Below, piece by piece: positions 1-18,768 of a DNA stretch of 64,000 nucleotides (the stretch's first letter is position 1; every line of letters starts with the position of its first letter). The stretch is from positions 12,086-76,085 of the forward strand of contig CAVVUR010000016.1 of assembly GCA_963751515.1 (NCBI GenBank), in the 5' to 3' direction. The translations under genes and the position numbers were made by a program. The notes below the pieces were generated by a model. It saw only the letters and a program-made list of their open reading frames with translations, was not told the DNA's origin and searched no databases. Source of the DNA: an uncultured delta proteobacterium. GTDB lineage: Bacteria; Desulfobacterota; WTBG01.

Positions 1-955
1 CAAAGCCCGGGACGAAAAGCTCCTCGATCACCCTCTTGCACGAGGCCTTCACATCTTTGGTAATGCCGCACTCTTCAATATAGCGCTTGATCACCTGCAC
101 CGAGTGGCAGGCGGCCATGGCCGCAACCAGGAAGGGAAAGACCATCACCAGCGGATCCAGGCTGTAGCCCAGCAGCACCAGAAATCCTATGCCCCAGATG
201 CCGCTGATTATGGCCATAAACACCGGCAGCACCATGCCCCGGATCGAGCGGAAGTAGAAGAGAAACAGGGCCAGCATGACCACCAGGGTTATGGCCATGA
301 TGGTCATGATGGTGCCCACATAGCTGTCAATGTACCCCAGGTGCAGCGGCTCACCGGCCATGCTCAGGATATGATTATCATCCTCGTATTTCTTCTGTAT
401 CCTGATCAGCTCCTTGAAGACCACCGAGTAGTCAATCTCGTCATCAAAGAAATCGGCGGTGATCAGGGTCTTTTTGTTGTCAAACCAGACCAGCCCGCCG
501 TAGAAAACGCTGGCATAGACCTGCTCCCGCAGTGCTTGCGCCTCCTCCTGCGTCTTGGGCACGTTGGGAAACATCAGGGGAACAAATTCGTAGCCGCCGG
601 ACTTGAGCTGCATGTCCACCACCGTATTCACCGCCAGCGAAGTAATCTTAAACCGGTCCACCCCAGGGATGTAGTACAGCTCATCGGTTATCTCCCTGAT
701 CTTTTTCAGGGTGGCGGGATTGAAGATGTCCCCCTTGCGCACCTGGAAGATCATGGTCACGGTGTTGGCACCGCCGAACTTGGCCCGGATCTGGTTGTAG
801 GTTTTTATATACTTGTGCCCCTGCGGCAGCAGGTCGGAAAATTTGGTATACACCTTCAAATTGATCATATTGAGCGCAAAGAAAAGCGTTATCAACCCCA
901 TAATGATGAGCACCAGTCCCCTTTTCTCAATTATAAAATCAGCAAACTTTTTCAT
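1..955 (-). CDS. RND/MMPL-family transporter permease, N-terminal part (gene continues past the left edge)
   Basis: This gene is absent from the ORF track because it has no stop inside the window. The reverse complement of 955..1 reads MKKFADFIIEKRGLVLIIMGLITLFFALNMINLKVYTKFSDLLPQGHKYIKTYNQIRAKFGG... This shows TM1 followed by a large soluble loop and then a TM bundle, as in MMPL/HpnN-like RND proteins. The 104..973 '+' ORF is its antisense shadow. Confidence 0.7.
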   Translation of the reverse strand, partial: MKKFADFIIEKRGLVLIIMGLITLFFALNMINLKVYTKFSDLLPQGHKYIKTYNQIRAKFGGANTVTMIFQVRKGDIFNPATLKKIREITDELYYIPGVDRFKITSLAVNTVVDMQLKSGGYEFVPLMFPNVPKTQEEAQALREQVYASVFYGGLVWFDNKKTLITADFFDDEIDYSVVFKELIRIQKKYEDDNHILSMAGEPLHLGYIDSYVGTIMTIMAITLVVMLALFLFYFRSIRGMVLPVFMAIISGIWGIGFLVLLGYSLDPLVMVFPFLVAAMAACHSVQVIKRYIEECGITKDVKASCKRVIEELFVPGF

Positions 956-1020: not shown

Positions 1021-2145
1021 TTACTCTCCCACCAGTTCCTTGGGCGGTTTAAATTCCGGCCAGTCATATGAGACACCCGAGAGCCATTCAAAGGTCTTGC
1101 CCCCGTCAATGGTTTTAAATACCGCCCCTGACTTCCCAACCACCCAGCCCACAGTTTCATTCACGAAAGCAACCGAGGTAAGCCAGCCCTTGGTGTGAAT
1201 GGCATCATCATTGTTGGTCCAGGTGTTTCCGCCGTCGCTGGACATGATGTAGGCACCGCGGTTACCCACCGCCCAGCACTTGTCTCCTACCATGGCGATG
1301 GAAAAGAGCGAGTTGGTGGAGGCGCTGTCAATTTTTTTCCACTCCTTGCCGCCATCGTCTGTTTTAAGCAGGGTGCCGTCAACACCTAAAATGAAGCCCC
1401 GCTGCCTGTCGGCAAAACGGATATCAAAGAGGGTCAGCTTCGGCAGCTCCCATTCATTCTCAGCCGTCTTCGGCGCCAAAGCCTCACAGGGACGGATTTC
1501 CCAGTTCTTGCCGCCATCCATGGTGTGATAGATGGAACCGAACTCCCCGACCAGCCACCCTTCATTGGCATCATGAAAGAATACCCCGTTGTAAATCACC
1601 TCCGCCGCAAAGACATTCTCATCGGTGCTCTGCTGTATGGTTTGGGGCTCCCAGGTCTTTCCCCCGTCAGCGGTATGGATGAGGGTCATCACATCGCCCG
1701 CCGCCCAGCCGTTGTTGCTGTCAGGAAAGTGGACGGTAAACAGATGCCTTTTGGTGCCGCTTTGCTGACGTTCCCAGGTCTTTCCCCCGTCCGAAGTATG
1801 TATCACGTTGCCCAGAATGCCCACTGCCCAGCCGTTCTGCCGGTCGGGGAAGCTGATATCGCAGATAAGCTCTCCCGACAGGCCGGTATTCTGAACCGTC
1901 CAGAAGTCCTTTTTGCTGTTTTCATACCTGATCTGGCTGCCCTGGCCGGTAGTGCCCAGATAGCTGTAGTCACCGGCTATGAGGATGTTGTCTTCATCAA
2001 ACGCGACCACCTTGGTAAGATTTTCCCCGACAATGGAAGGTATGTGAGGAACCTTAAAGGTTGACTTCTTCTGCTTGCAGCCCAGGGGTGAAGCAATCAA
2101 AGCCGCACTGATTACCATAATACATAGTTTATACGTGTTCACCAT
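1021..2145 (-). CDS. Ycf48/BNR-like beta-propeller lipoprotein
   Basis: The ORF 1021..2199 was trimmed to the ATG at 2145, which has a GGAGGA RBS 6 nt upstream. A lipoprotein signal (...ALIASPLGC) is present. Repeated 'S/T-DGGKTW' BNR/Ycf48 motifs occur (TSDGGKTWE, TADGGKTWE, TMDGGKNWE, TDDGGKEWK, SSDGGNTW, TIDGGKTF). It lies directly upstream of the RND gene. Confidence 0.7.
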   Translation of the reverse strand: MVNTYKLCIMVISAALIASPLGCKQKKSTFKVPHIPSIVGENLTKVVAFDEDNILIAGDYSYLGTTGQGSQIRYENSKKDFWTVQNTGLSGELICDISFPDRQNGWAVGILGNVIHTSDGGKTWERQQSGTKRHLFTVHFPDSNNGWAAGDVMTLIHTADGGKTWEPQTIQQSTDENVFAAEVIYNGVFFHDANEGWLVGEFGSIYHTMDGGKNWEIRPCEALAPKTAENEWELPKLTLFDIRFADRQRGFILGVDGTLLKTDDGGKEWKKIDSASTNSLFSIAMVGDKCWAVGNRGAYIMSSDGGNTWTNNDDAIHTKGWLTSVAFVNETVGWVVGKSGAVFKTIDGGKTFEWLSGVSYDWPEFKPPKELVGE

Positions 2146-2462
2146 GCCCGATCCTCCACATACATAACGCGTGAGTTTGGAATGCTTCCTTGCATGCATT
2201 TATAAATGAAGCAGAATTATCACTACCCATAATTGCTGTCAATGATAATTTGCCTGCGCGAATCATTTTTAACAAAAAAAATGCCACCGCTGCATCAACC
2301 ATCACTTGCAGAAGCCTCCTGCAACTGATGACCATGGACGATGGATTGAAATAAGCATTATTCATGCTATGGCTTCTGTATGAAAGACGCTTCAGATTTC
2401 AGGTATCTTATTGCCTTTCACCCGTGACATGTGAGTATCCTGCATCGTGTATGTGTAACTCG

Positions 2463-4175: not shown

Positions 4176-4205
4176 ATATCATCCTCTCCTGAAAGCCTTC
4201 AGAAT

Positions 4206-5820: not shown

Positions 5821-5938
5821 CTTAAAATCCGAAATCCGAATATCGAAATCCGAAACCACATACTGATGTGTGATGTGAGATCTGGGATATGAGATTAAAA
5901 TTTTTTTTAGCCCATATCACAAATCGCATATCCCATCC
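5821..5938 (+). repeat. Intergenic repeat family 3, copy 1 (heptamer tandem + hairpin with A/T loop)
   Basis: The sequence cttaaaatccgaaatccgaa...tgatgtgtgatgtgagatctgggatatgagattaaaattttttttagcccatatcaca recurs in inverted orientation at 56345..56438. It starts with tandem AATCCGA-like heptamers. It lies between two FAD-oxidase genes. Confidence 0.65.
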
Positions 5939-5961
5939 CGCATGGATTTAGTGCTTCGAAT

Positions 5962-7683
5962 TTATACTGTAATAGTATCCATGTTAAAAAGATTACGCAA
6001 CTGGTTCAGCTTTTGCACCGCCTCTGTGGGATACTTCTTGAGCTCTTGCTCGGTCAGCACCTGCCTGCCGGGGCTGCATATGCCCTGCGGGTCAAAGACC
6101 TTTCTTAATTTTCTCAGCAGGAGATGGACATTGGGGCCCTGCTCGGGGAAAAAGGTGACCAATGGTTCAGCCGGGCCACCGAAGCCGAAGGGCGCGCAGT
6201 GCCGCTCGGCGCCATTTTTAACCGCGCTGTACATGGTTATGGCAACACATTGTTCCAGCGAATGAGGGTCCAGCGGATCCGGGTAGATATCCGTCTCCGA
6301 GAGCGTGTAGCGCCCCGCCGGCTCTATGCCGTACACAAAGGGGGTTGTTTCCGCCCCGCCCCGGTCGGTGACGTGTGTCTCACCGAAGCGCTCGAGCGCT
6401 TCACGCCAGAGCCCGCTGTGGTAGAGGGCCACCTCGGGCGGACCCGCGGGAAGGCTCCCGCCCGCGTACATGCGCCGGTTCATGCGATAGCCGCAGACAT
6501 TCCTGATGCAGTCCAGATTCCAAGGCTGAAGCGCCTCGAGAACCTCCGGCTTGTAGTCGCGGGAGAGAAACCTGCCGCCCTGCTCTTCCGCTATCTCCCT
6601 GAGGACCTTTTCCTCATATTCCAGCTGGCCCTCTGATACGATGCCCGCGCAGATGACATAGAGGTTAAAGGCGGGGAAAAAATTGCCCGTCGCCCGCTCC
6701 TCGGTCATTTTCTGGGTGGGGGAACAGTAATAGGACGAATACACCCCCGAGGCATTGAGCCCGATGCCGATGCCCGCGTGGGCAATGGCCCGGTATGCCC
6801 TGATTTCAGATTCGCAGTCGGGAAACTCTATCCAGTGGATGCGGTGCTGAGGCGGGGCAGGGGCATGATCATAGCGCTCATCGGCATAGCAGGGAATGCA
6901 GGGCCTTCCCGCCAGCGGTTCCGGCATCAGCTCCCCGCCGACCCAGGTGTGCAGCTTGACGGTCACCTCGGTAATGATGCCGGTGGTCCCGGCGCTGGCG
7001 CGCACCACCCCGGTGAGGTCAGGGCCCGGCCCGCTCTCCCATACGCGGCCAACGCCCGCAACCGCGGGGGAACCGGTGCTCATGATTTCACCGGTGGGCA
7101 GCACCAGCTTTATGTCCACGATGTTTCTGTCCAGCAGGCCGTATTTCTTGCTGGTCTGCCAGATGCCCGCAAAGGCCACCTGGGAAGCGAGCTTGCACAG
7201 GGTGGTTGCCAGCGGCGTCCCGCCATTCCAGAGCCCCACCCTGGCGGCCTCGGCCATGAGCTGCCCGTAGTCGGCATAGGGCTCAAGTGTGGCCGTCATG
7301 AGCTGCTCATCGACGGACAGCACCCGGTTCATCCGGCTCAGGTGAATGCAGATCATGGGCGCGGGAAAGGTGGGGGCGCTCATCATTTGGCCGTTGGTGA
7401 AGGGTATGAAAGGAACCCGGTAGCGATGGGCGATCCTCACCACTGACCGCACTTCATCGGTGCTGCCCGGCAGCACCACGCAGGCGGGAATGCTGGAAGC
7501 ATTTTTTGCGTGCTTCTTTAAAAACCCTTCCGCGTCCAGCGAGAGCTTGCTGTAGGTTTCCAGCACCGCCCGGTCCCGGGAAATCCACTCCCTGCCAACG
7601 ACACGCTCCAGTGCCTGGTAGATGTCGTCCGGCAGCTGTGCCGGAATTATTTTTTTCTTTTCAGCGGGAGGATTCATGCTCAT
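5962..7683 (-). CDS. FAD-binding oxidoreductase, VAO/PCMH family, long form (573 aa)
   Basis: It is collinear with the 2463..4175 product over its full length (…PACVVLPGSTDEVRSVVRIAHRYRVPFIPFTNG…; C-terminal FDPQGICSPGRQV). Confidence 0.8.
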   Translation of the reverse strand: MSMNPPAEKKKIIPAQLPDDIYQALERVVGREWISRDRAVLETYSKLSLDAEGFLKKHAKNASSIPACVVLPGSTDEVRSVVRIAHRYRVPFIPFTNGQMMSAPTFPAPMICIHLSRMNRVLSVDEQLMTATLEPYADYGQLMAEAARVGLWNGGTPLATTLCKLASQVAFAGIWQTSKKYGLLDRNIVDIKLVLPTGEIMSTGSPAVAGVGRVWESGPGPDLTGVVRASAGTTGIITEVTVKLHTWVGGELMPEPLAGRPCIPCYADERYDHAPAPPQHRIHWIEFPDCESEIRAYRAIAHAGIGIGLNASGVYSSYYCSPTQKMTEERATGNFFPAFNLYVICAGIVSEGQLEYEEKVLREIAEEQGGRFLSRDYKPEVLEALQPWNLDCIRNVCGYRMNRRMYAGGSLPAGPPEVALYHSGLWREALERFGETHVTDRGGAETTPFVYGIEPAGRYTLSETDIYPDPLDPHSLEQCVAITMYSAVKNGAERHCAPFGFGGPAEPLVTFFPEQGPNVHLLLRKLRKVFDPQGICSPGRQVLTEQELKKYPTEAVQKLNQLRNLFNMDTITV

Positions 7684-7789
7684 TGCGCATCATTGTGGAA
7701 AGGGGCGGGAAAATGAAAGGCGGGGTGTGGCAGGCATTGTGCTGCACCCCGCTGACTGCTCTTCCCGAATTATCGCCGCAGTGGAGCGG

Positions 7790-9136
7790 CTAGCCGCGGG
7801 CCTGCATGGGGAAGCCCGCCCTGATGCACCCGTCAAAAACGGCGGCAAGCGGCACATTCCGCATCCCTACCAGCTTCTGATGAATAACGGGCCGCTGCTT
7901 GGCAACGGCCGGCATTATCTCCGCCAGGGCGCCGCCGACCAGTTTGGGGGTCTCATAAGGATCAAGGATGCTGGGCAGTGATTTTTTAACCAGGCTCAGC
8001 ACGAAGTCAATCTCGTCAGGGGTGAGCCGGAGGGGAAGCACGGCATTGCGCATCATGCTTCGGTAGTCGTATTTATCCAGCACCTCCTCTTTCCACCAGC
8101 GGAGGTAGGATGAAACCCCTTCGCGGGATATTTTTCCATCGGTCAGGGCAAAGCTGACGGCGTTGGCCGCCTTCCAGCCGCTGATAACCGCCCCGGTCAT
8201 CTCCGCCTCCTGGCACCACACCGCGTCGGAGACAAGCAGCACCTGGTCCTTGTAAGGATCGACAATGTGCGACTGCGCGTTGCCCGCGGAGGTCAGGGTG
8301 CGCTTTATCTCTGCCTTTTCGAACCAGGGCGCGAAAAATCCTTGTGTCGAGAATCGTTCAAAGGCGCCGGCGAGGTCCTGGCCGGGGCTGAGCGAGGTGG
8401 TCATGACGAAGTAGGTGTCCTCCGTCGTCCGCGGTGTCATCCACACGCGCTTGGAAGGTGTCTCGTCGAGAAATATCTGGAAGAGGGCAAATTTTTCCGG
8501 CGGCTTTACCCCCACCATTTCATACCCCAGGGTCACCGCAGTGCCGAAATACTTCCGATCCCGGTTGCAGCCCAGGGTGTGGGCTATTCTAGAGGCGCGG
8601 CCGTCGGCGGCGATGACGAAGGTGCCCCTGAAGGACCTTCCTTCGCGGGTGAAAACCGTCACCCTGCCTCCCTGCAACTCGGTCCGGATTACATTATACG
8701 GGTTATAGACATCAACCTTCAGGGCGCAGGCCTCCTCCAGGAGGCAGCGCAGCAGCGCCCCCTTATCGTACGTCGCGCTCACCCTGCCGCTCTCGCCCCT
8801 GCGCTCATTCTCTTCATAGTTGCCGAGCTGGATTTTGTTGCCCCGGTGGGAGTATATAGCCCAGGTGAAAAAGTCCTGGTGGGGGCCGTCATAGTTGACG
8901 GTAAAACCGTATCCCGGGAAGCAAAGCTTCTTGTCCCGGCTGTTTAAGCGTACCCGCTCCTCAAGATATTTCCCGGTCAGGGTCACCACCATCATGCTGC
9001 AGGCACGGTTGATATCAGTAATGTGCTCTTTTCGCTCGATCAGGGCCACGCTCAGCCCGTGTTCAGCTGCTGTTTTGGCTGCCATCAGGCCGGCAGGCCC
9101 TGCGCCGACTACGATCAGATCATATTCTCCGGGCAT
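7790..9136 (-). CDS. FAD-dependent oxidoreductase, geranylgeranyl-reductase/FixC-like superfamily
   Basis: A Rossmann motif YDLIVVGAGPAGLMAAKTAAEHGLSVALIERKE is present. The start was moved to the ATG at 9136, which has a GAGGAG RBS about 6 nt upstream. It is a paralogue of 12910..14208. Confidence 0.75.
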   Translation of the reverse strand: MPGEYDLIVVGAGPAGLMAAKTAAEHGLSVALIERKEHITDINRACSMMVVTLTGKYLEERVRLNSRDKKLCFPGYGFTVNYDGPHQDFFTWAIYSHRGNKIQLGNYEENERRGESGRVSATYDKGALLRCLLEEACALKVDVYNPYNVIRTELQGGRVTVFTREGRSFRGTFVIAADGRASRIAHTLGCNRDRKYFGTAVTLGYEMVGVKPPEKFALFQIFLDETPSKRVWMTPRTTEDTYFVMTTSLSPGQDLAGAFERFSTQGFFAPWFEKAEIKRTLTSAGNAQSHIVDPYKDQVLLVSDAVWCQEAEMTGAVISGWKAANAVSFALTDGKISREGVSSYLRWWKEEVLDKYDYRSMMRNAVLPLRLTPDEIDFVLSLVKKSLPSILDPYETPKLVGGALAEIMPAVAKQRPVIHQKLVGMRNVPLAAVFDGCIRAGFPMQARG

Positions 9137-9212
9137 CTTCACTCCTCTCATCATTCGTCATTACAATCAGTCTGCGCCGCTGCTCACACGCTCATGAGCG
9201 GCCACCGGCCCG

Positions 9213-9425
9213 TTACTCGTCAAGAATAGTGATCGCCTTTTCCGGGCAGGCGTCCTGGCAGGAAAGACAGCAGTGGCAGATCACGCCCGCCTCTTCGATT
9301 GCCTTGGCTTTTTTCTTTCCGTCCGGTGTTTCAATCAAAACCCACAGTTCCAGGCCGCACTGCTCAAGGCACTGCCCGCAGCCGCGGCACTTTTCCAGAT
9401 CGACCAGATGTTTCACCATATGCAT
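9213..9425 (-). CDS. 4Fe-4S dicluster ferredoxin (70 aa)
   Basis: Two cluster motifs are present: CRGCGQCLEQC and CHCCLSCQDACP. Confidence 0.75.
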   Translation of the reverse strand: MHMVKHLVDLEKCRGCGQCLEQCGLELWVLIETPDGKKKAKAIEEAGVICHCCLSCQDACPEKAITILDE

Positions 9426-9434
9426 GACACCTCA

Positions 9435-9842
9435 TCACAAAGTAGACTTAACCTCATCAACCATTTTTTTAAAGCGGGGATCTGATTCATACAGCCGGAC
9501 CATGGCATCGAAAAAGGGAAAGGTGGCCATGAGGTGGACGGGAACGTTGGGATCGGTCATATCGCCCTTCAGCAGCTCACCCTTGTCCTTGATTTCCATG
9601 AGATCGAAGGTGTTGTCGATGGCGCTGCAGAGATCAGCCGTTTTCAGCTTCAGCACCACGTGGCAGTCGTCCCGTATCCCCTGCTCCAGATAGAGCTTGC
9701 CGTCTTTTACCACCTGGGTGAACTCGTGCGCGTCAAGCTTCATGCCCACCTTGTGGTCACTGAAATCAGCCATCATCCCCTGCGCCGTTTCATCCGCATT
9801 GGTAAAATCGGCGCCTGCCGCAAGCATTTCCATAACCGACAT
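9435..9842 (-). CDS. Small soluble protein, SCP2 sterol/lipid-carrier-like (tentative)
   Basis: A GGGAGG RBS lies 8 nt upstream of the ATG at 9842. The C-terminal half (…LKTADLCSAIDNTFDLMEIKDKGELLKGDMTD…FPFF) resembles the SCP2 'G-K-L-x-I-x-G-D' region by eye only. Confidence 0.55.
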   Translation of the reverse strand: MSVMEMLAAGADFTNADETAQGMMADFSDHKVGMKLDAHEFTQVVKDGKLYLEQGIRDDCHVVLKLKTADLCSAIDNTFDLMEIKDKGELLKGDMTDPNVPVHLMATFPFFDAMVRLYESDPRFKKMVDEVKSTL

Positions 9843-9855
9843 GTCTCATCCCTCC

Positions 9856-10584
9856 CTAAAAATAGACAGCATTAAGCAGCTTGATCATGCCATCACCCAG
9901 TTCTTCCCGTACCGGACCCGGCAGCATTTCCGTAAAAAAATGGGCGCGCAGGGTGGTGCGCAGCGCCGAACGTTTTGCCGCCAGCTCCTTTTTCTTCGCC
10001 TCATCGGTAACCGGCACCGCCTCGGCAAGAAACGCGAGGTAGCTCTTGAGATATTCAGTGTGCGGGGCCAGGGCCGCCAGGCGCATCCCCTCCTTCTCGA
10101 TGGGAACCCGGGCCGCGGTGTAAATGATGGAGGCGAGAGAGCGGATGACATCGCTTTCCTCGGGACAAATGCCGGGCAGGGCGGCAAACCGGTCCCAGAG
10201 GGGCTGCACCGACTCAATATACTTCTTGCGGTATTCCTCATCCACCAGGCTGTCCACCGTGGGGATGATATCAACCAGAAGCATGACCTCCTCCGGCCCC
10301 TCTTCGAGACGCGAGAGAAACAGGGGCAGGTCATAGGCTTCCCCGGGCATGATGCTGCAGAAGGCAAAGTGCCTGCTGCCGGCATGGACAAAGGAGCCGA
10401 TGCCTATTTTTTCCAGCTTGTCAGCGCGGTATGCGCTGAACCCTCCCCGCGCTTGGCCTCTGGCAAACTCCAGTGCGGGCGCAAGATTCTGCCCATTCCA
10501 CTCCTGAAGCGCGGTGGGCTGCAGCGAATCAATCAGTCCCTTCATTTTTTCCAGATAGGGTGTCCATTTCACGCCTGCATCCAT
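9856..10584 (-). CDS. Ferredoxin-dependent bilin reductase (Fe_bilin_red)-like protein, divergent copy B
   Basis: An AGGAGG RBS lies 7 nt upstream of the ATG at 10584 (the track ORF starts at 10608). The core reads …FAFCSIMPGEAYDLPLFLSRLEEGPEEVMLLVDIIPTVDSL… This parallels the PcyA segment …YGLPLFGCDIVAG…AIADLSPT… by eye. Confidence 0.55.
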   Translation of the reverse strand: MDAGVKWTPYLEKMKGLIDSLQPTALQEWNGQNLAPALEFARGQARGGFSAYRADKLEKIGIGSFVHAGSRHFAFCSIMPGEAYDLPLFLSRLEEGPEEVMLLVDIIPTVDSLVDEEYRKKYIESVQPLWDRFAALPGICPEESDVIRSLASIIYTAARVPIEKEGMRLAALAPHTEYLKSYLAFLAEAVPVTDEAKKKELAAKRSALRTTLRAHFFTEMLPGPVREELGDGMIKLLNAVYF

Positions 10585-10597
10585 TTCTCTACCTCCT

Positions 10598-11365
10598 TTA
10601 AAAGACAAGGCTCACGAAGAGGTGGCTTTTTTCCGCGCCAAAAATCTTTTTCATCACCTCTCCGCCCGGATCAAGATCGCGGTAATATTTCTGGGTCTTG
10701 CTTTTTCTGCGCAGCATCTCCTGCCGGTACCCCTCATCCCGAATGGGCTCCGCCTGCTTCAGCAGGTCAAGCCACACCCTGGCATAGGCAACCACCGCCT
10801 CCATCAGTTTCACCCGGTCCACCTTCTCCTCCACCCGCCCGTCAAGGCTGAAGGGAGAGAGCGACTCGCGCGCCCAGGGCCAGGGCCCGTACCGTCTCTG
10901 CACCAGACACCGTCCCTCACTGGTAAATCCCGGTATGGTGCGGTACTTCCGCCACAGCGGCGCTATCTCCCGGTAGTATTTTTGCAGGTACTCCTCGTGC
11001 CGGGCGATGTCCACCGTGGGCATTAAATCCATGGTCACGCCCACCCGCGGCGCCGTTTCGTCAAACTCGCAGGCATAGATGGGCAGGTCATAATCGTTGC
11101 TCGCGGTCATGTTCAGGGCGCAGTACTTGGCCCGTCCCATGTAATGCAGCTCACCGATGGTAATCTTCTCGATTCTGTCGCTTCCCTTGATGAGGTATGG
11201 CTTGTAGAAGCCGGTGGCCATGGGTGTTTTAAACTCCCAGGCCGGCCTGGTGTCCATGCCCTGGTAGGTTTCAAGCGGCACCAGCTCCAGTCCTTCAAAC
11301 AGCCTATAATCCTCCACGATCACCTTCTCGAACGCCGTCATCTCATTCCATGCTACCTTTGCCAT
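10598..11365 (-). CDS. Ferredoxin-dependent bilin reductase (Fe_bilin_red)-like protein, copy A
   Basis: A GAGGAG RBS lies 7 nt upstream of the ATG at 11365. Two regions match FDBR landmarks by eye: …KYCALNMTASNDYDLPIYACEFDETAPRVGVTMDLMPTVD… and the C-terminal …YYRDLDPGGEVMKKIFGAEKSHLFVSLVF. The corresponding PcyA/PebA landmarks are '…LP.FGCDIV…DLSP…' and '…NDP…FG…F'. Confidence 0.6.
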   Translation of the reverse strand: MAKVAWNEMTAFEKVIVEDYRLFEGLELVPLETYQGMDTRPAWEFKTPMATGFYKPYLIKGSDRIEKITIGELHYMGRAKYCALNMTASNDYDLPIYACEFDETAPRVGVTMDLMPTVDIARHEEYLQKYYREIAPLWRKYRTIPGFTSEGRCLVQRRYGPWPWARESLSPFSLDGRVEEKVDRVKLMEAVVAYARVWLDLLKQAEPIRDEGYRQEMLRRKSKTQKYYRDLDPGGEVMKKIFGAEKSHLFVSLVF

Positions 11366-11496
11366 AACCACACTCCTCTTGTACGGTGGGTATTCCTGTC
11401 CGGCTTCGCCTTCATTTCCTTACGCTGCGGTTAAGCAACCGGCCGCGGCTGGCCCCTCAAATGCACCGGCATGCAAAACAATAGTTCCATAAAAAT

Positions 11497-11525
11497 TTGA
11501 CTGTACATTCGGATTCTGCTACCAT
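11497..11525 (+). promoter_or_regulatory. Candidate sigma70 promoter for the outer-membrane protein gene
   Basis: The elements are TTGACT (11497-11502), a 17-nt spacer and TACCAT (11520-11525). Confidence 0.3.
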
Positions 11526-11574
11526 ACCCACATCCGCTTACTTTATTCATAAGGGCTACGCTATGGTTCGAAAT

Positions 11575-11603
11575 TAACTATCATCCGCCTGAGCCTCTGT
11601 CAA
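11575..11603 (-). promoter_or_regulatory. Candidate sigma70 promoter for the FDBR-like/flavoprotein operon
   Basis: On the minus strand the elements are TTGACA (11603-11598), a 17-nt spacer and TAGTTA (11580-11575). The -10 element is weak. Confidence 0.25.
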
Positions 11604-11763
11604 CCGATAAATACAACTTTCCGTAAATCGACTTCTTCTTTCTGTTTGAGTGTATCAACAGACCATAGATATAACAATGTACTCTCCAGACCGTCCGATA
11701 AAAACATCCGGTACTCATTCAAGCGCGCGCTGTCGGACGTTGCGCAGGCTGTGCCGGTGGGGT

Positions 11764-12840: not shown

Positions 12841-12858
12841 CAGCTGGTAAGAAACAAA

Positions 12859-12883
12859 AGGCCGGGGATGCATGTCCCGGCCT
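12859..12883. terminator. Hairpin between convergent genes (possible bidirectional terminator)
   Basis: The sequence aggccgggg-atgcatg-tcccggcct forms a 9-bp stem. It is flanked by A/T-rich runs on both sides. Confidence 0.45.
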
Positions 12884-12909
12884 GGTATTATTCAGCAAAC
12901 GCGCGCGTC

Positions 12910-14208
12910 TTAGCCGTCCTTGAGGCTGCTTTCAAGGGTACTGCTGCGGACGCTCCTGATTTTTGCGTAGGTGGCAGGGCGTTCCCGCTCAATCTTCTTC
13001 GGATCGCGCAGGATTGCGTCCCATATCATCCGGGATGACTTGTACTGGCTGAAGCTCCCGTCCAGGAGCACATCCTCACACAGGCCGAAAAGGTAGTCAA
13101 GCTCGTCATCGGTGTAGGTAGGCACAAAGGCATATCCCTGCTGCACCTGCATCATACCCTTGTCATTGAACTCAAATGATTTAAGCCACCAGTCGGCGTA
13201 TTCCGCGAACCCCGTTTCACCCTTGAGTTCCCTGGCAACCGCCTCCGCGGCCTTATAACCGCAGCTCAAAGCCCCCTGCCCCTGCACTTCAACAAACGCG
13301 GCAGAATCTCCTATAATTATAGTATTGCCTTTGCAGGGCTGGGCAATAGGGGTAAATGCCTTGACCGAACAGCAGTAGCGCTCTTCAATCTTGGCGTTGG
13401 CGAACCGGTCGGCTATGGGGCTGTCTTTGGTAAACCGGCCAAAGGCCTCCAGCGGCAGGTCCCGGGGACTGCCGAGACTAATCACATCCGCCCAGTCCTC
13501 AAAATGGCCGGCAGGCCCGGTGCCGATGATGGGAGCAAGATTTGAGCCGTAGCACCTGCCATACCAGAGAACCCACTCGGCAGGGTTATAGTGCTTCACA
13601 CCCGACATGTAGCTGGCCATGCAGAGGGCAAAACCCATGTAGCCGCGATTGGCATTGAAACCCATTGCCTGCCCCAGTCGGGTATTGCAACCGTCGGCGA
13701 TGATGAGCTTTTTCGCCTTCACTTTCTCCTTCTTTCCCCTGCTTACGCACTTGACCTCAACCCCCTGGGCGCTGTCGATCGCGTCATAGCCGCTGGTTTC
13801 ATTTCTGAAGGTGACCCCCAGCGCCAGACATTCCTCGAGCAGGCTCCCCAGCAGGAAACCCTTGTCGTACTTGTAGGCATACGGCCGGCGGTCAGGCCAG
13901 GCGAAGTGGATGGCCCTGCGCTTGGGAGAATAGTACCATTTGTCTATGCAGGGGAACAAAGCCCCCTTATAGTCCACCACCCACCCGTTCACCGTGGAGG
14001 TTATGGTGCCTTTTTTAGGATCCACTAAAACCGTATCTCCATTATAGTCTTCATCGAGTATCAAATGCTCGCTGCAGTAACGGGTAATTTTGGAGATGTC
14101 TTTGCGCTTCTCAATGAGAATCGTCTTGAGCCCCTTCTTGGCCGCCCACTTGGCAGCATGCACACCTCCGGGACCGGCGCCCACAATGGCAAGATCGTAA
14201 ACCGTCAT
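12910..14208 (-). CDS. FAD-dependent oxidoreductase, geranylgeranyl-reductase/FixC-like superfamily (paralogue 2)
   Basis: The N-terminus reads MTVYDLAIVGAGPGGVHAAKWAAKKGLKTILIEKRKD… The overall architecture resembles 7790..9136. It is the last gene of the NuoEFG-like operon. Confidence 0.75.
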   Translation of the reverse strand: MTVYDLAIVGAGPGGVHAAKWAAKKGLKTILIEKRKDISKITRYCSEHLILDEDYNGDTVLVDPKKGTITSTVNGWVVDYKGALFPCIDKWYYSPKRRAIHFAWPDRRPYAYKYDKGFLLGSLLEECLALGVTFRNETSGYDAIDSAQGVEVKCVSRGKKEKVKAKKLIIADGCNTRLGQAMGFNANRGYMGFALCMASYMSGVKHYNPAEWVLWYGRCYGSNLAPIIGTGPAGHFEDWADVISLGSPRDLPLEAFGRFTKDSPIADRFANAKIEERYCCSVKAFTPIAQPCKGNTIIIGDSAAFVEVQGQGALSCGYKAAEAVARELKGETGFAEYADWWLKSFEFNDKGMMQVQQGYAFVPTYTDDELDYLFGLCEDVLLDGSFSQYKSSRMIWDAILRDPKKIERERPATYAKIRSVRSSTLESSLKDG

Positions 14209-14257
14209 TACTTCCTCCTTGGATGCTTACATATTCATTCAGAATTGCGGCAACTCT

Positions 14258-15196
14258 CTAGCTGATGGCCTGCATGGGACAGATGAGCTCGCAGCTGTGG
14301 CAGGCAGTGCAGTTCTGCGGATAGAGCTGCGCCTTTTTATCATAACCGCCCTTATCCTCGAGCTCCAGCGCGCCGCAGGGGCAGTTCTCCATGCAGCCGC
14401 CGCAGCCCAGGCACTTGTCCTGGTCAACCACCGGATACTGCCGGCACGAGGGGCAGATGTCAAAAAATTCATTGGGCAGATTCTTTTCCCGCTTCACCTT
14501 TTCCAGATGCGGCTCCGGCGCGTAGGGATTGCCGCACTTTTTGCAGCACTTCAGTTTGTGCTCCACCTTCCAGTTCAGGATCTCCCGCTGCGGACCGGTT
14601 TGATCGCACCCGTCCGGCGTGCAGAGCGCGGTGGAAAACAGGTCGTTTTTCTTGATGATGCCGGTGGGACAGATGAAGGCGCATGAGCCGCAGGCAATGC
14701 AGTCATCCGCGGTCTTGCTGAAGGGCGAGTCCACCAGCTTGCCCAGGCCGCGTCCCGCAAACTGAATGGCGCCCGCCTTGACCACGTCGTTGCAGGCGCG
14801 GACGCACAGCCCGCAGAGTATGCAGTACTCATTATCCTTTCCCATCTGCTGGGCGATTTCGGTCACCCCGTACTCCGCGGCCAGCTCCTGGACCATCTGC
14901 ACGTTGGGGCAGCGCGCCAGATGGAGCTCGAGAATCATCTTGCGCGCTTCTTTGATGCGGGGGGTGTGGGTGTGCACCTCCAGCCCGTCGCTCACCGGGT
15001 AGGTGCAGGATGTGTCCACCGTCACCCTCCCGTTTTTCCCGATCTCCACCACGCAGAGGCGGCAGGCGCCATAGGGCTTGAGCGCGTCATTCGAACACAG
15101 CGTGGGTATCTCAATCTCATTGGCCCGCGCCGCCTGAAGGATGGTCATGCCCTCCTCTGCCTTTATTTTCCTTCCGTTTATCTTTAAGCTCACCAT
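14258..15196 (-). CDS. 2Fe-2S + multi-4Fe-4S iron-sulfur protein (NuoG/HydA N-terminal-like, no catalytic domain)
   Basis: The start is the ATG at 15196 (MVSLKINGRKIKAEEGMTILQAA…). A plant-type 2Fe-2S N-domain is present (…CSNDALKPYGACRLCVVE). Several CxxCxxCxxxCP motifs follow (CILCGLCVRAC, CIACGSCAFICP, CLGCGGCMENCP, CTACHSCELICP). Confidence 0.75.
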   Translation of the reverse strand: MVSLKINGRKIKAEEGMTILQAARANEIEIPTLCSNDALKPYGACRLCVVEIGKNGRVTVDTSCTYPVSDGLEVHTHTPRIKEARKMILELHLARCPNVQMVQELAAEYGVTEIAQQMGKDNEYCILCGLCVRACNDVVKAGAIQFAGRGLGKLVDSPFSKTADDCIACGSCAFICPTGIIKKNDLFSTALCTPDGCDQTGPQREILNWKVEHKLKCCKKCGNPYAPEPHLEKVKREKNLPNEFFDICPSCRQYPVVDQDKCLGCGGCMENCPCGALELEDKGGYDKKAQLYPQNCTACHSCELICPMQAIS

Positions 15197-15236
15197 AAAT
15201 ATCATCCTCTCTCGTATCGCTACGCCGTTTATGCCC

Positions 15237-16967
15237 TTACGCTTTCTTTCTGAGCAGTTTGCCTTCAATCACCTGCGGGAAATGGGTGAGCACCGAGATA
15301 AAGGGCACCGCTGCGGTTTTGCCCAGGGCGCAGGCGCCGGTATCCGACAGTGCCGATGCCAGGCGCTTGACCAGGGCTATGTGCTCGCTTGTTCCCTGCC
15401 CTTCCATCACGTCAGTTATGATCTGCTGGAGCCGCTTGGTGCCCTCCCTGCAGATGCTGCACTTTCCGCAGGACTCGTCGGCAAAAAAGTCGGTGAAAAA
15501 CTTTGCCATCTCCAGCAGGTCCGTGTCCTCATCCATGACCACCAGCCCGCCGGAACCGAGCAGGCTTCCTTCCTTGGCCAGGCGATCGTAGTCGAGCTTG
15601 ATCTTCAGCAGTTTGGCCGGCAGAATGCCGCCTGAGGGGCCTCCCGCCTGGAAACCTTTTATCTTCTTGCCGTTGGCGGCGCCGCCGCCGAAGGTTTCAA
15701 TGATCTCCCCGATCTCCATGCCCAGCGGTACCTCCACCCAGCAACTCCGGGCCACATGGCCGGACAGGGCCACAATTTTCGTGCCGGTGCTGCCGGGCGT
15801 ACCGATACCCGCATACCACTTCCCGCCCTTGGCGATAATGGCGGGAATGGTTGCCAGGGTCTCGAGATTGTTGACCACAGTGGGTTTGTTGAAAAGCCCG
15901 CTTTCGGCGGGATACGGGGGCCGCGGCCTCGGCTCGCCGAACGAGCCTTCCAGCGCATTGAGCAGCGCCGTTTCCTCGCCGCACACGTACGCCCCTCCTC
16001 CCCGCTTCACCCGCAGGGAGAAAGAAAATCCCGAACCCGCTATATTGCTCCCGATCAGGCCCAGGGCTTCCGCCCCCTCGATGGCCCGGATGAGCCGCTC
16101 GTGGGCCACCTGGTACCGGTCATTCAAATAAATGTAGCCTTCCGATGCGCCCACCGCGTAGCCGGCGAGGGCCATCCCCTCTATGACCGCGTGGGGATCC
16201 GATTCCAGAAAGCTCCGGTGCATGCCGATTTCGGGATCGCCCTCGCTGCCGTTGGCGACAATGTACTTGGCATTCCCGGCCGCCTGACGGCAGGCCTGCA
16301 GCTTAATACCCGCCGGGAATCCGGCGCCGCCCCGGCCGCGGAGCTTGGACACGGTTACTTCCCTGATGACTTCATCCGGACTCATGGAGGTCACCGCTTT
16401 CAGCAGCGCCTGGTAGCCGCCCAGCGCGCAATATTCCTCAACCTGCTCCGGGCTGACCGTGCCGGCGTTTTTGCTGATGAGCTTCATCTGCTTTTTGAAA
16501 AAATCGAACTTCCCGCATTCTTTGAGCGCGGCCGCGTCCTTGGGGACTTTCGCCCCGGCATACTTGATCGATACACCGCCTTCCGCGGTTAACCTGTCCA
16601 TCCTCATCAGGGCCAGATCCTTGACCACGCCCCCCTTTGCCACCGAGGCCACCAGGTCAGGAACCCGTTCCACGCTCACCCGGCCATAGGTGATGCGCGG
16701 CTTTCCCGGGCAGATCACTTCAACAATGGGTTCGGCATAGCAAAGACCGTTGCAGCCCACCACCACCACATCAGCCTTGGCTTTCTGCTTCTTAATCTCA
16801 TACTTCAGGGCTTCAAAAATCTTCCCCGCGCCCTTGGCCAATCCGCAGGTTGCCATGCCGACGGTAATCCGGGCACGTGCCGGCGTCAGCATGCTGAGCC
16901 CCTTCTTCTGTATCGCGTTCAGGTCAAGCGGTTTATCCTGTTTCATAGACTCCCCTTTATCATTCAC
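15237..16967 (-). CDS. NuoF/HydB-like NADH-binding FMN/FeS flavoprotein with N-terminal thioredoxin-like 2Fe-2S domain
   Basis: The motifs are GRGGAGFPAGIKLQ (NADH/FMN), ESCGKCSICREG (the N3-type 4Fe-4S) and N-terminal …CGLAKGAG…VGCNGLCYAEP. Confidence 0.85.
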   Translation of the reverse strand: MNDKGESMKQDKPLDLNAIQKKGLSMLTPARARITVGMATCGLAKGAGKIFEALKYEIKKQKAKADVVVVGCNGLCYAEPIVEVICPGKPRITYGRVSVERVPDLVASVAKGGVVKDLALMRMDRLTAEGGVSIKYAGAKVPKDAAALKECGKFDFFKKQMKLISKNAGTVSPEQVEEYCALGGYQALLKAVTSMSPDEVIREVTVSKLRGRGGAGFPAGIKLQACRQAAGNAKYIVANGSEGDPEIGMHRSFLESDPHAVIEGMALAGYAVGASEGYIYLNDRYQVAHERLIRAIEGAEALGLIGSNIAGSGFSFSLRVKRGGGAYVCGEETALLNALEGSFGEPRPRPPYPAESGLFNKPTVVNNLETLATIPAIIAKGGKWYAGIGTPGSTGTKIVALSGHVARSCWVEVPLGMEIGEIIETFGGGAANGKKIKGFQAGGPSGGILPAKLLKIKLDYDRLAKEGSLLGSGGLVVMDEDTDLLEMAKFFTDFFADESCGKCSICREGTKRLQQIITDVMEGQGTSEHIALVKRLASALSDTGACALGKTAAVPFISVLTHFPQVIEGKLLRKKA

Positions 16968-17709
16968 CTAACATTTCTGAAATCTTGGTATGGGCATCAT
17001 CACCGCTGTACATTTCACCGTTCACCAGCACCGCGGGCGAAAGGTCGCAGCAGCCCAGGCATCGCACCTTTTCCAGGTTAATGTCCGCGTCCGGCGAGGC
17101 CGCTTTCTCCTCAAGCTGTTTCAGCATTGAACCGCTGCCCTTGAGGTGGCACCCCGTGCCGTCACAGACGCTCACCGTGTATTTTCTGGGCGAATCGGTT
17201 GGAAACGCCGTGAATGAGGTTACCAGCCGGTAGAGGGTGCTCATAAAAACGTTTTTCTTCTGGCTCACCACCCGCAGCGCCTCTTCCGGCACATGGCCGA
17301 ACTTGGCCTTCAGGGCGTGAAGTATGGCGGGGACTGATTCCTGGCCGCCGGGATATGACGCCACGATGCCTTCAACCACGCTTATGTCAACACCTCCCAT
17401 GGTGGCAAAACCCTTGAGGATGTTGGACTTGAACGGCTCGGGCACTATTTCATTGACGATCTCCACAACCTGGGCTTCCTGGTAGGCCCCGCCCTTCGCC
17501 TTCTGCCCGAGTATATCCATCAGTTTCACCCGGAACACATCCTGCAGCGATTCCGGCACCTCCTTGATCATGAGCTCAAACATGGCCTTGCTGCTGCCCG
17601 CCCATGCGCCCGGGGCCGCAGCCTGGGGAGCCTGAGCAGTTGCAGGAGACGAAGCTTTCGCCGGTGAGCTCTTCTTTGCGCCTGCTTTCATACGCTTACT
17701 CTTAGACAT
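16960..17709 (-). CDS. NuoE/HydC-like 2Fe-2S protein with ~110-aa N-terminal extension
   Basis: The C-terminal part carries …VCDGTGCHLKG…VRCLGCCDLSPAV… The N-terminal part is an Ala/Pro/Lys-rich tail followed by an unassigned ~70-aa region. Confidence 0.75.
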   Translation of the reverse strand: MSKSKRMKAGAKKSSPAKASSPATAQAPQAAAPGAWAGSSKAMFELMIKEVPESLQDVFRVKLMDILGQKAKGGAYQEAQVVEIVNEIVPEPFKSNILKGFATMGGVDISVVEGIVASYPGGQESVPAILHALKAKFGHVPEEALRVVSQKKNVFMSTLYRLVTSFTAFPTDSPRKYTVSVCDGTGCHLKGSGSMLKQLEEKAASPDADINLEKVRCLGCCDLSPAVLVNGEMYSGDDAHTKISEMLGE

Positions 17710-17752: not shown

Positions 17753-18484
17753 TTATGCAACCGCGTCAAGATACTGCTGTATCAGGCCTTCCAGTTGTTT
17801 ATACGCCCGGTCAACCGATGCCTGTGCCTCGGCCATTTCCCCCTCGCTCAGCTTTTCAAACCGCCCCTGCGCCTTGAGATAGTCGGCAAGCGGCCTGGGC
17901 TTCCCCGTCTTCACCGTAAGGCCGTACGCGCCCGCGCCCGCTTCATACAGAGGAAAGGCCCGGCCTTCCACCGCCAGCCGCCCCAGTTTTACCGTGAAAT
18001 CCGCATCAAACTTCCAGCCCGGGGGGCAGGGACAGAGCACGTGCACATAGGCGTCGGCAGTGCTTTTGAAGGCCCGCTTCATCTTGTCGTACAGGTCAAA
18101 GGGATAGCTGGGACAGGCCGTGGCCACATAGTTGAAACCCTGTGACGCAGCGAGCTGGGGCATGGGTTTCTCAAGCAGGTCGGCGAGAGATCCGCCCGCT
18201 TCGTTATCGCAGCAGATCACCAGCTTCCCCCGGGCCTTGGGAATGGTCAAAAAGGTGACATCGGTCGCGCCCGTTCCGAAGTGCCCGGAACCGGCAGTGC
18301 CGGCCCTCCCATGCTCCGCTGACGCCCAGGCCCCCTTTTCAATGCTCATGCCCAGGGCCTTGTATGTCTGGCGGATGGCCAGCGCCAGCCCGCATCCCGG
18401 GCATGCCTGGTTCAGCTCAGGGACGAAGTATTCCTTACAAGGCAGGAAATTAGAAACATAGAGACTGTACTTATCCATTGTCAT
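17753..18484 (-). CDS. Pyruvate/2-oxoacid:ferredoxin oxidoreductase beta-subunit-like protein (degenerate)
   Basis: The start ATG at 18484 overlaps the upstream stop (ATGA). The PorB-like N-terminal motif …CPGCGLALAIRQ… is present. I cannot find a clear GDG…N TPP/Mg motif (the region reads GKLVICCDNEAGG). Confidence 0.6.
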   Translation of the reverse strand: MTMDKYSLYVSNFLPCKEYFVPELNQACPGCGLALAIRQTYKALGMSIEKGAWASAEHGRAGTAGSGHFGTGATDVTFLTIPKARGKLVICCDNEAGGSLADLLEKPMPQLAASQGFNYVATACPSYPFDLYDKMKRAFKSTADAYVHVLCPCPPGWKFDADFTVKLGRLAVEGRAFPLYEAGAGAYGLTVKTGKPRPLADYLKAQGRFEKLSEGEMAEAQASVDRAYKQLEGLIQQYLDAVA

Positions 18485-18768
18485 TCCTCCTTGAACATGC
18501 TGATGGCCCCGAACCAGCATTCCCGGTGGCATATGCCGCAGCCCTTGCACTTGGCGGTATCAGCTTCGAAATAACCCTCCTCATTGCGGAACACCGCACC
18601 GTCGGGACAGTACACAAAGCAGAGCCCGCAGCGGATGCATTTGTCCTTGTCCCACTCCGGCGTCCACTCCCGCGCGTCTCCCGGCCGAAATGGCGTGCCA
18701 CTGCCCTGATCAAGCAACGAGCAGCTGATCATCTTTTTCTGAAATCCCGCAGTCGATTCCAAAATCAC
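18481..18768 (-). CDS. PFOR delta-subunit-like 2x[4Fe-4S] ferredoxin
   Basis: The sequence …DKDKCIRCGLCFVYCPDGA…DTAKCKGCGICHRECWFGAI… has the typical PorD layout. Confidence 0.7.
   Translation of the reverse strand: MILESTAGFQKKMISCSLLDQGSGTPFRPGDAREWTPEWDKDKCIRCGLCFVYCPDGAVFRNEEGYFEADTAKCKGCGICHRECWFGAISMFKEE

Follow-up and report, generated by a model that had tools for sequence, protein, structure and literature searches.

It has been argued that all known enzymes with the fold of the ferredoxin-dependent bilin reductases (FDBRs), that is the FDBRs themselves, RCCR and HemF, are ultimately dependent on O2, and from this the FDBRs have been taken to be younger than oxygenic photosynthesis (Rockwell et al., PMC10151467). 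Earlier lineages, termed 'archae-FDBR', are actively sought by the field. Here we describe a tandem pair of genes, referred to as A and B, that encode FDBR-fold proteins on a contig of an uncultured delta proteobacterium of the sulfate-reducer type (assembly GCA_963751515.1, contig CAVVUR010000016.1, positions 12,086 to 76,085; the whole 64,000-nucleotide stretch is referred to as the window). A appears catalytically intact while B is degenerate, and both belong to a conserved module together with an orphan protein of 135 residues (C135) and a ferredoxin.

Amongst the described systems, PebB (GtPEBB, 6QX6) and HY2 (tomato, 6KME) provide the closest comparison. They are alpha/beta/alpha sandwich proteins of ~250 residues with a YDLP-sheet motif, an acidic residue on the central sheet and the Arg-x3-Asp-Pro-Gly helix-loop motif of A-ring reduction. 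The key residues of GtPEBB are Asp-99 on strand S4, which was described as 'critical in all FDBRs', and Asp-219 in the H6-H7 loop, which is held in place by Arg-215 (PMC6755814). RCCR is a dimer and belongs to a catabolic pathway, in which it reduces a linear tetrapyrrole by two electrons from ferredoxin, following the oxygen-dependent pheophorbide a oxygenase (PMC10151467). Outside of the phototrophs, the pre-PcyA enzymes (Pre-1/2/3) of heterotrophic bacteria reduce biliverdin (PMC13446030); their gene clusters contain haem oxygenase, an Fe-S protein, two V4R proteins and BBAG globins, or B12-binding and globin proteins. A group of uncharacterised FDBR/RCCR-like sequences from non-photosynthetic bacteria of the 'Ca. 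Schekmanbacteria' (OGL44139.1 type) was found to lie between the FDBRs and RCCR and was then put in the RCCR outgroup (Rockwell et al., 2023; PMC10151467). In literature searches by Pfam name and for FDBRs in anaerobes, the clade treated here was not described beyond this passing mention of Schekmanbacteria, and the portion of the PMC10151467 text that was searched contained no Desulfo- or Schekmanbacteria accessions.

Two FDBR-fold paralogues encoded in tandem

The four genes of the module lie on the minus strand in the order A, B, C135, ferredoxin:

10598..11365, minus strand: A, FDBR-fold protein of 255 aa, apparently catalytically competent (Glu100, Arg229, Asp232); PF05996, AlphaFold2, Foldseek
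9856..10584, minus strand: B, degenerate FDBR-fold paralogue of 242 aa without both catalytic acids; PF05996 sub-threshold, AlphaFold2, Foldseek, hhalign
9435..9842, minus strand: C135, orphan protein of 135 aa, directly after B; position conserved in related loci
9213..9425, minus strand: 2x[4Fe-4S] ferredoxin of 70 aa, presumed electron donor; Fer4 matches, two CxxCxxCxxxC(P/G) motifs

A first-pass annotation, made from the sequence by eye, had described A and B as adjacent open reading frames (ORFs) with a ribosome-binding site each. Their positions and signals were confirmed: the ATG of A at 11365 is preceded by GAGGAG (8-13 nt 5' of the start) and that of B at 10584 by AGGAGG (7-12 nt 5' of the start), giving each gene a GGAG-type site, and 13 nt separate the stop of A from the start of B. 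The motifs quoted at the time recur verbatim in the two translations, which read YDLPIYACEFDE...MDLMPTVD...YYRDLDPGGEVMKKIFG...LVF in A and YDLPLFLSRLEE...VDIIPTVD in B. An ORF of 384 aa, rich in Pro, Arg and Gly, runs antisense across the A/B junction (9697-10851, plus strand); most likely it is a spurious frame that the high G+C content keeps open. Scanning positions 900-14400 for promoters and terminators gave counts equal to the shuffle expectation and no informative sites, and a sigma-54-like TGGAAC...TTGC element noticed by eye 5' of A was ruled out by its spacing.

The by-eye assignment to the FDBR fold stands for both proteins, as family matches were obtained at the level of profiles as well as of structures, and the outcome that the first-pass annotation had named as refuting it, a lack of any such match, did not occur. 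The Pfam profile Fe_bilin_red (PF05996) scores 51.7 bits with A (gathering threshold 31, E 1.2e-13) and 25.6 bits with B, which is below the gathering threshold yet significant at E 1.1e-5; a precomputed PF05996 assignment exists for many members of the B family. RCC_reductase (PF06405) remains sub-threshold for A, with 21.5 bits at a gathering threshold of 24.9 and coverage of residues 86-133 only, and gave no match to B in Pfam. The NCBIfam equivalog profiles of PebA, PebB and PcyA yield 25-35 bits (best score 29.5 for A and 35.2 for B) at cutoffs of 206-327, and orthology to any named bilin reductase is thus ruled out for both. Motifs for cofactor binding were detected in neither sequence.

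AlphaFold2 models of A and B, built on 46-sequence alignments, have pLDDT values of 91.4 and 93.7, respectively. Searching the PDB with the monomer models in Foldseek, A was matched to GtPEBB, tomato HY2, RCCR, PebA and PcyA (TM-scores 0.68-0.77, or 0.70-0.77 when PebA is left aside, E down to 2e-11) and B to RCCR as the top match, GtPEBB and PcyA (TM-scores 0.67-0.77), the matches to PebB, HY2, RCCR and PcyA lying at E 1e-9 to 2e-11. Grouped by target, the TM-scores of the two models are 0.64-0.77 against PebB, HY2, PebA and PcyA (0.70-0.75 for GtPEBB and tomato HY2) and 0.67-0.74 against RCCR, and both models display the alpha/beta/alpha sandwich with a central antiparallel sheet and C-terminal helices. 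Further matches are HemF, at a distance, and the FDBR-like subunits of the chloroplast Ycf2/Orf2971-FtsHi motor complexes (8xqw_H, 8xks_P), so that all solved structures matched at E <= 0.01 are either tetrapyrrole enzymes (FDBRs, RCCR, HemF) or these FDBR-like subunits. When the A profile is compared with the PDB sequences, HY2 is nearest (E 2.3e-12), followed by GtPEBB (E 4.6e-9). Membership in the FDBR superfamily holds for A by sequence, fold and catalytic residues, and for B by fold only.

In the HMMER alignment (chain numbering offset 2), Asp-99, Asp-219 and Arg-215 of GtPEBB correspond to Glu100, Asp232 and Arg229 of A. Glu100, which also takes the position of PcyA Asp105, lies in the segment ACEFDE, where an acidic residue at the place of the catalytic Asp had been noticed by eye, and Arg229 and Asp232 sit in the motif YRDLDPGGE, providing A with the distal Asp/Arg pair of the PebB/HY2 type. 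The landmarks aligned by eye proved to be genuine; RDLDPGG within this motif matches Arg-215/Asp-219 of GtPEBB, and the DPG motif and the distal Asp are absent from B, for which no C-terminal landmark had been noted. Tyr92, Asp93, Glu100 and Asp113 are invariant in the A family (46/46 sequences), while Arg229 and Asp232 are kept in 38/46 and replaced by Leu and Ser in eight, all of which belong to a solo-A subfamily described below. A Glu at the Asp105 position also occurs in active Pre-1 FDBRs (PMC13446030) and is hence not disqualifying for A.

The corresponding position of B, residue 92, is Arg in 32 of the 46 sequences and otherwise Gln, Leu, Thr, Ser, Ile, Tyr or Phe, and never Asp or Glu. 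B possesses invariant residues of its own (Ser91, Glu95, Asp105, Asp111, His175, Tyr178 and Lys180), and residues 136-182 form a strongly conserved block in which R148, H175, Y178 and K180 are invariant. The B proteins diverge faster than the A proteins: in locus L001 (L numbers denote the related loci introduced below) the identity to the respective window protein is 62 % for A and 44 % for B, and clustering at 50 % identity leaves one representative of the A family and seven of the B family. The sequences are thus consistent with one catalytic and one degenerate copy, and a catalytic/non-catalytic A/B heteromer appears plausible.

The A-family and B-family profiles align to each other with an hhalign probability of 99.9 % (E 3e-33, 27 % identity). 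In public metagenomes the A family comprises 117 clusters, nearly all of 255 aa, and the B family 149 clusters of ~242 aa; all members carry the label hypothetical, and those that are named originate from metagenome-assembled genomes (MAGs) of Thermodesulfobacteriota, Deltaproteobacteria or 'Pseudomonadota'. A HMMER search with the A profile over 1.84 billion cluster representatives returned only 133 proteins at E <= 1e-3. They comprise the A family itself at 461 bits, full-length bacterial FDBR-like clades at 95-151 bits, with the B family among them at 120 bits, and, at about 36-51 bits, sequences whose motifs identify them as plant HY2-type and PebB-type. Clade P0242, which includes the Candidatus Schekmanbacteria sequence OGL44139.1, reaches 148 bits with the A profile; with the B profile it likewise reaches 148 bits, as compared to only 114 bits for A. 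Each profile consequently scores the Schekmanbacteria-type clade, the nearest named relative of both proteins, above the other paralogue, which identifies A and B as old paralogues and rules out the recent tandem duplication that the word 'duplicated' in the first-pass annotation had suggested. Most bacterial FDBR-like clades, the Schekmanbacteria type included, share a sheet motif [S/C][D/E][W/F][D/N]E and a C-terminal DPG, and it is specifically the B-type clades that lack the central acid and the DPG motif. Another relative, P0245 from Dehalococcoidia, is named phytochromobilin:ferredoxin oxidoreductase by NCBI.

The A-B-C135-ferredoxin module and its variants

Related loci were surveyed in one genome per GTDB species, giving 32 loci, to which three metagenome loci were added; 32 loci were assessable for B. 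The surveyed GTDB loci all stem from MAGs of the Thermodesulfobacteriota type, with no cultured organism among them, and one, L004, located on a 1.27-Mb contig of MAG MFD03899.bin.1.233, is 97 % identical to the window. B lies directly 3' of A in 27/32 assessable loci and is followed by C135 and then by the ferredoxin gene; the intergenic gaps within the window module measure 9-13 nt. The conserved 135-residue partner and the envelope transporter described below had been overlooked in the first-pass annotation.

The C135 family consists of 278 clusters, all of 135-136 aa, and searches of Pfam, NCBIfam and the PDB with the single sequence and with a profile gave no sequence match. In the distant clade L036, the gene after an FDBR-like one encodes a homologue (57 bits). 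The impression gained by eye that C135 might be an SCP2-like carrier found no backing in any of these searches, and a role as metal or Fe-S protein was discarded because the conserved Cys and His of the A/B clade are missing in the L036 homologue, leaving no universal site. The ferredoxin, of a low-potential type, has its gene conserved directly after C135 in the related loci, and A would accordingly be ferredoxin-dependent.

Five loci lack B and form the solo-A subfamily, in which A is followed by an MFS transporter. In two of them (L002 7908-9848 and L034 8165-9957), two tandem genes for HemF-like proteins of 250 aa and a gene for a ParA/NifH-like ATPase stand directly 5' of the solo A. The HemF-like genes score 39 and 42 bits with PF01218 (gathering threshold 31.8), and their hosts are apparent anaerobes; HemF is normally O2-dependent. 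Several MAGs carry two separate A-type loci (L008 and L034, L010 and L028, L016 and L018, L019 and L033, L023 and L032, L026 and L030), and in the first two of these pairs one locus is of the A/B type and the other of the solo type.

More distant clades show other arrangements. In L036 (8001-12622) the order is FDBR-like, C135 homologue, ferredoxin, FDBR-like, ferredoxin, B12-binding radical SAM enzyme, and in L040 (7724-11089) the two FDBR-like genes flank one for a NIR_SIR/Fer4 protein, with a ferredoxin gene ahead of the first. Contrary to the first-pass annotation, a pair of FDBR-like genes is therefore not unusual in this wider clade of bacteria. In L041, UbiD and an FDBR-like gene are followed by genes for a weakly C135-like protein, FAD_binding_4 and CCG; in L039 and L030 the FDBR-like gene adjoins an OYE/FadH-type reductase; and in L037 and L038, which are of the Schekmanbacteria type, a single FDBR-like gene is followed by two MFS transporters. 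Haem oxygenase was found in none of these seven loci (L036, L037, L038, L039, L040, L041 and L030).

A family of lipoproteins of 580-900 aa, made up of two HGG/NH-containing halves with variable inserts, is encoded directly 5' of A in L008, L010, L019 and L021 and also occurs in L016, L020, L022-L024, L029 and L031; the window has no copy. A link to chelatases through this family and a protein of 450-480 aa was considered and set aside, as the Ferrochelatase matches are weak and sub-threshold (E 0.0036 and 0.0081).

Redox and envelope genes around the module

The module is embedded in an array of genes for flavoproteins, electron-transfer proteins and envelope proteins:

2..955, minus strand: AmeD-like HAE3/MMPL RND transporter, N-terminal 326 aa, cut by the window start; tblastn
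1021..2199, minus strand: AmeC-like periplasmic BNR/Ycf48-like propeller; PSII_BNR 139 bits
2463..4175, minus strand: FAD_binding_4 flavoprotein c, 570 aa; PF01565 70 bits
4206..5678, minus strand: FAD_binding_4 flavoprotein b, 490 aa, GlcD/D-LDH-like; PF01565 89 bits, TIGR00387 90 bits (sub-threshold)
5962..7683, minus strand: VAO/PCMH-type FAD_binding_4 flavoprotein a, 573 aa; PF01565 79 bits, family in 15 loci
7790..9154, minus strand: GGR1, FAD-dependent oxidoreductase of the geranylgeranyl-reductase/FixC/PHBH superfamily, 454 aa; FAD_binding_3 56 bits
11650..12840, plus strand: putative outer-membrane beta-barrel, 396 aa; weak OMP_b-brl match only, array membership uncertain
12910..14208, minus strand: GGR2, second flavoprotein of the geranylgeranyl-reductase superfamily, 432 aa; TIGR02032 63 bits (sub-threshold)
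14258..17709, minus strand: NuoG-N-terminal-like, NuoF-like and NuoE-like genes; Fer2_4 + Fer4, Complex1_51K + NADH_4Fe-4S, 2Fe-2S_thioredx
17753..18550, minus strand: X265, 265 aa, matching a PorB-type thiamine pyrophosphate subunit (2-oxoacid:ferredoxin oxidoreductase beta subunit) over the C-terminal half of that subunit only; PRK11864 131 bits (cutoff 405), aa 127-258

Clustering the ORFs of the related loci free of annotation revealed the most frequent companions of the module, namely GGR1-type flavoproteins (17 loci), FAD_binding_4 (15), BNR (12), MFS (11), MMPL/HAE3 RND, DUF1302 and DUF1329 (9-10 each), CCG of the HdrD/GlcF-like type (9) and ETF (5). GGR1 adjoins the module in about 15 loci, reaches 75 bits with TIGR02032 (cutoff 158.8) and has only remote relatives in the PDB; reading GGR1 and the ferredoxin as FixC and FixX was rejected, since the FixC match is limited to the FAD-binding N-terminus (aa 9-46). 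Flavoprotein c, which stands directly 5' of A in L012, L013 and L031, matches alkyl-DHAP synthase and D-LDH in the PDB at E 5e-13 and p-cresol methylhydroxylase over its full length at E 5e-8.

At the end of the array lie the BNR gene and an RND gene of which the window includes 326 N-terminal aa. The RND fragment is 55 % identical to the MMPL protein of L029 (tblastn, E 5e-108), a BNR gene follows the ferredoxin gene in about 12 related loci, and the full AmeABCD-type set (BNR, RND, an outer-membrane protein with DUF1302 and a LolA-like protein with DUF1329) is present in L001 and about 10 other loci. Cassettes of this type have been tied to the traffic of hydrophobic compounds (Castellaniella, monoterpenes; Pseudomonas, Tween or fatty esters), with the role of AmeC described in PMC6394551. 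The window resembles the HAE3 RND cassette of Castellaniella defragrans in its Ycf48-like BNR and MMPL/HAE3 genes, and its relatives in DUF1302 and DUF1329 as well; while the C. defragrans cassette is linked to monoterpene genes, the one described here is linked to FDBR-like genes.

On the other side of the module, GGR2 is syntenic in L004, L005, L008 and L011 and, distantly, in L026, and the block of X265, NuoE-, NuoF- and NuoG-like and geranylgeranyl-reductase-like genes is likewise found 5' of A in the distant locus L026. The Nuo-like genes and X265 may constitute an NADH-linked, possibly bifurcating electron-input module that supplies reduced ferredoxin. The beta-barrel gene, the sole plus-strand gene of the array, is conserved in L004, L005 and L011. 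We infer that the hosts are anaerobic from their taxonomy labels and from the types of neighbouring genes (AFOR, CCG/Hdr-like, NrdD, NuoEF/PorB-like); the MAGs come from sediments.

The first-pass annotation had pointed out that a bilin context is missing, and this proved true for the window and for the related loci with Pfam annotation. Haem oxygenase, phytochrome, phycobiliprotein and globin were all without a match when the main ORFs of the 64-kb window and part of the small ones were scanned with Pfam, and none of the four was seen in the related loci with Pfam annotation. The other 40 kb of the window carry housekeeping genes, including FtsH, TilS, FolP, CdaA, PdxJ and aspartate kinase, and no ChuW-type gene. 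They also encode a full-length bacterial serpin (56466-57695, plus strand; PF00079 436 bits), serpin genes being uncommon in bacteria. Two further minus-strand genes (21564-23102 and 25109-27625) code for large, probably secreted or surface proteins, one with BACON_2 and the other with thrombospondin type-3 repeats and a dockerin domain.

Possible function of the module

Set against the described systems, A differs from PebB and HY2 in its low sequence identity (17-18 %), in carrying Glu for Asp on the sheet and in its context, which contains neither haem oxygenase nor a biliprotein gene and pairs A with a degenerate paralogue, the orphan C135 and a 2[4Fe-4S] rather than a [2Fe-2S] ferredoxin gene in anaerobic hosts. 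The Schekmanbacteria type shares the sheet and DPG motifs with A; its single genes in L037 and L038, however, come without B, C135 and ferredoxin. A resembles the pre-PcyA enzymes in belonging to an FDBR lineage outside of the phototrophs and in the Glu that it has in common with Pre-1, while the partner families of the pre-PcyA clusters (haem oxygenase, V4R and BBAG globin) were found neither in the window nor in the related loci. RCCR is the top structural match of B and is set apart by the Pfam scores given above. A and B thus fail to qualify as PcyA, PebA or PebB equivalogs, as RCCR or as pre-PcyA, either by score or by cluster composition, and the gene context in the window and the annotated loci provides neither a biliverdin-type substrate supplied by haem oxygenase nor a biliprotein product, as would be expected of a functional FDBR. 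While the fold is known and the chemistry probably so, the architecture of A, degenerate B, C135 and 2[4Fe-4S] ferredoxin is new, as is the physiology of the hosts, and the substrate of the module is very probably new as well.

We propose, with a probability of about one half, that A is a ferredoxin-driven, cofactor-free reductase of a conjugated hydrophobic substrate, probably derived from a tetrapyrrole, in an oxygen-independent pathway, with B and C135 as its partners. The substrate would be bound between the central beta-sheet and the C-terminal helices of A and would receive two single electrons from the co-encoded 2[4Fe-4S] ferredoxin and protons from Glu100 on the sheet and from Asp232, which Arg229 would hold in place in the helix loop; PebB and HY2 share this arrangement. 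B, an old paralogue without both proton donors, would most likely serve as a non-catalytic subunit of a heteromer or in substrate hand-over, and C135 as a further obligatory, non-catalytic partner, for example a substrate carrier or hand-over protein. As no haem oxygenase accompanies the module, the substrate is probably not ordinary biliverdin; it would be conjugated, hydrophobic or amphiphilic and not derived from haem oxygenase, a tetrapyrrole-derived pigment being the most probable candidate. The leaning towards tetrapyrroles follows from the fact that all characterised enzymes of the fold act on them and from the HemF-like, NIR_SIR and B12-radical-SAM neighbours that recur in relatives, and the hydrophobic nature of the substrate is suggested by the AmeC- and AmeD-like genes at the end of the array and the full cassettes in about 10 loci. 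The geranylgeranyl-reductase-like and VAO-type flavoproteins could carry out adjacent redox steps, and the AmeABCD-like cassette could move the hydrophobic substrate or product across the envelope. The fold, the paralogy, the residue conservation and the conserved module are direct observations, and the ferredoxin dependence, the association of A with B, and the nature of the substrate flow and its catabolic or biosynthetic direction are inferred.

Several observations weigh against this proposal. The canonical electron donor of FDBRs is a plant-type [2Fe-2S] ferredoxin and not a 2[4Fe-4S] protein. Enzymes that would make a linear tetrapyrrole, such as haem oxygenase and ChuW/HmuW-type radical SAM enzymes, were found neither in the window nor in the nine Pfam-annotated related loci, and the lipoprotein hint at a chelatase is unverified, its family profile having found nothing in the PDB and NCBIfam being negative. 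The constant neighbours (geranylgeranyl-reductase-like, VAO/PCMH-like, CCG, ETF, OYE, UbiD and AmeABCD-like) are less typical of tetrapyrrole metabolism than of anaerobic isoprenoid or aromatic metabolism, and the conserved block of B (residues 136-182) may mark another active site instead of an interface.

A substrate other than a tetrapyrrole is a serious rival, because no ring-opening enzyme was found and the neighbours resemble anaerobic isoprenoid and aromatic metabolism. The fold might have been recruited for a polyene or isoprenoid, a quinone-like compound or an aromatic or enoate in anaerobic degradation, with the ferredoxin-driven radical chemistry retained. The geranylgeranyl-reductase-type and three VAO/PCMH-type flavoproteins, CCG and ETF, and a cassette resembling AmeABCD, whose known counterparts belong to monoterpene and fatty-ester metabolism, would all fit, as would the clades that pair an FDBR-like gene with UbiD, with FAD_binding_4 and CCG or with OYE/FadH-type reductases, and a tetrapyrrole ring-opening enzyme is found in none of the window and annotated loci. 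We nevertheless consider a change of substrate class doubtful, given that all characterised members of the FDBR/RCCR/HemF fold act only on tetrapyrroles (PMC10151467), that A displays the exact acid/Arg constellation of bilin A-ring reduction and that HemF-like genes flank the solo A. A further alternative is ordinary bilin biosynthesis: a haem oxygenase gene elsewhere in the genome would supply biliverdin, and A would reduce it to a phytobilin that serves a bilin-binding protein or photoreceptor. HY2 and PebB are the best matches in sequence and structure, the Dehalococcoidia relative P0245 bears the name of a phytochromobilin reductase, and the heterotrophs with pre-PcyA set a precedent for biliverdin reduction (PMC13446030). 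The equivalog scores lie far below their cutoffs, however, the haem oxygenase, V4R and BBAG globin partners are absent, the conserved operon partners are not light-sensing genes, and the Thermodesulfobacteriota-type hosts from sediment carry the genes of anaerobes (AFOR, CCG/Hdr-like, NrdD), which together make this explanation improbable.

The role of B bears on two other alternatives. Adjacent FDBRs acting in sequence are the norm for PebA and PebB (PMC6755814), and A and B could, like adjacent pebA-pebB, both be active and carry out successive two-electron reductions of one substrate. Such a division of labour would agree with the acidic and DPG motifs that both FDBR-like genes of L036 and of L040 have kept, and with the invariant polar residues of B (E95, D105, D111, H175, Y178 and K180). 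It seems unlikely to us, as B is without an acidic residue in all sequences at the central-sheet position 'critical in all FDBRs' (PMC6755814), lacks the distal Asp and diverges markedly faster than A. Least probable, in our estimate, is that A and B have no enzymatic activity and act as ligand-binding or scaffold proteins, for example as carriers for the flavoproteins or the RND system. The FDBR-like subunits of the Ycf2/Orf2971-FtsHi complexes, which have no known reductase role, speak for such a function, as does the loss of the catalytic residues from B; in A, though, the triad is kept throughout the A/B-type clade, always together with a dedicated ferredoxin gene.

Returning to A as a ferredoxin-driven reductase, we would tentatively extend the proposal to the organisms: anaerobic Thermodesulfobacteriota and allied lineages might take up or export a tetrapyrrole-derived or similarly conjugated pigment and reduce it independently of oxygen by a complex of A, B, C135 and ferredoxin. 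A conserved, apparently catalytically intact clade that is confined to MAGs of anaerobes, has its own ferredoxin and is seen without haem oxygenase bears directly on the view that the fold depends on O2. If pigment reduction is indeed oxygen-independent in these bacteria, the FDBR/RCCR/HemF fold would not be tied to oxygen-dependent tetrapyrrole chemistry, the clades would represent the sought 'archae-FDBR' lineages, and a heteromeric architecture with an orphan partner would be new among characterised FDBRs. Should the module reduce a bilin that arises without O2, for example one of the anaerobilin type, or another pigment, it would reveal a new branch of tetrapyrrole turnover by anaerobes in sediments, and the account of how phycobilin biosynthesis evolved would change. 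With a substrate outside the tetrapyrroles, the cofactor-free radical reductases of this fold would for the first time have moved to another substrate class. Under both outcomes B, the degenerate partner, and C135, the orphan, would be new components, and the four small genes constitute a concrete, expressible and directly testable module.

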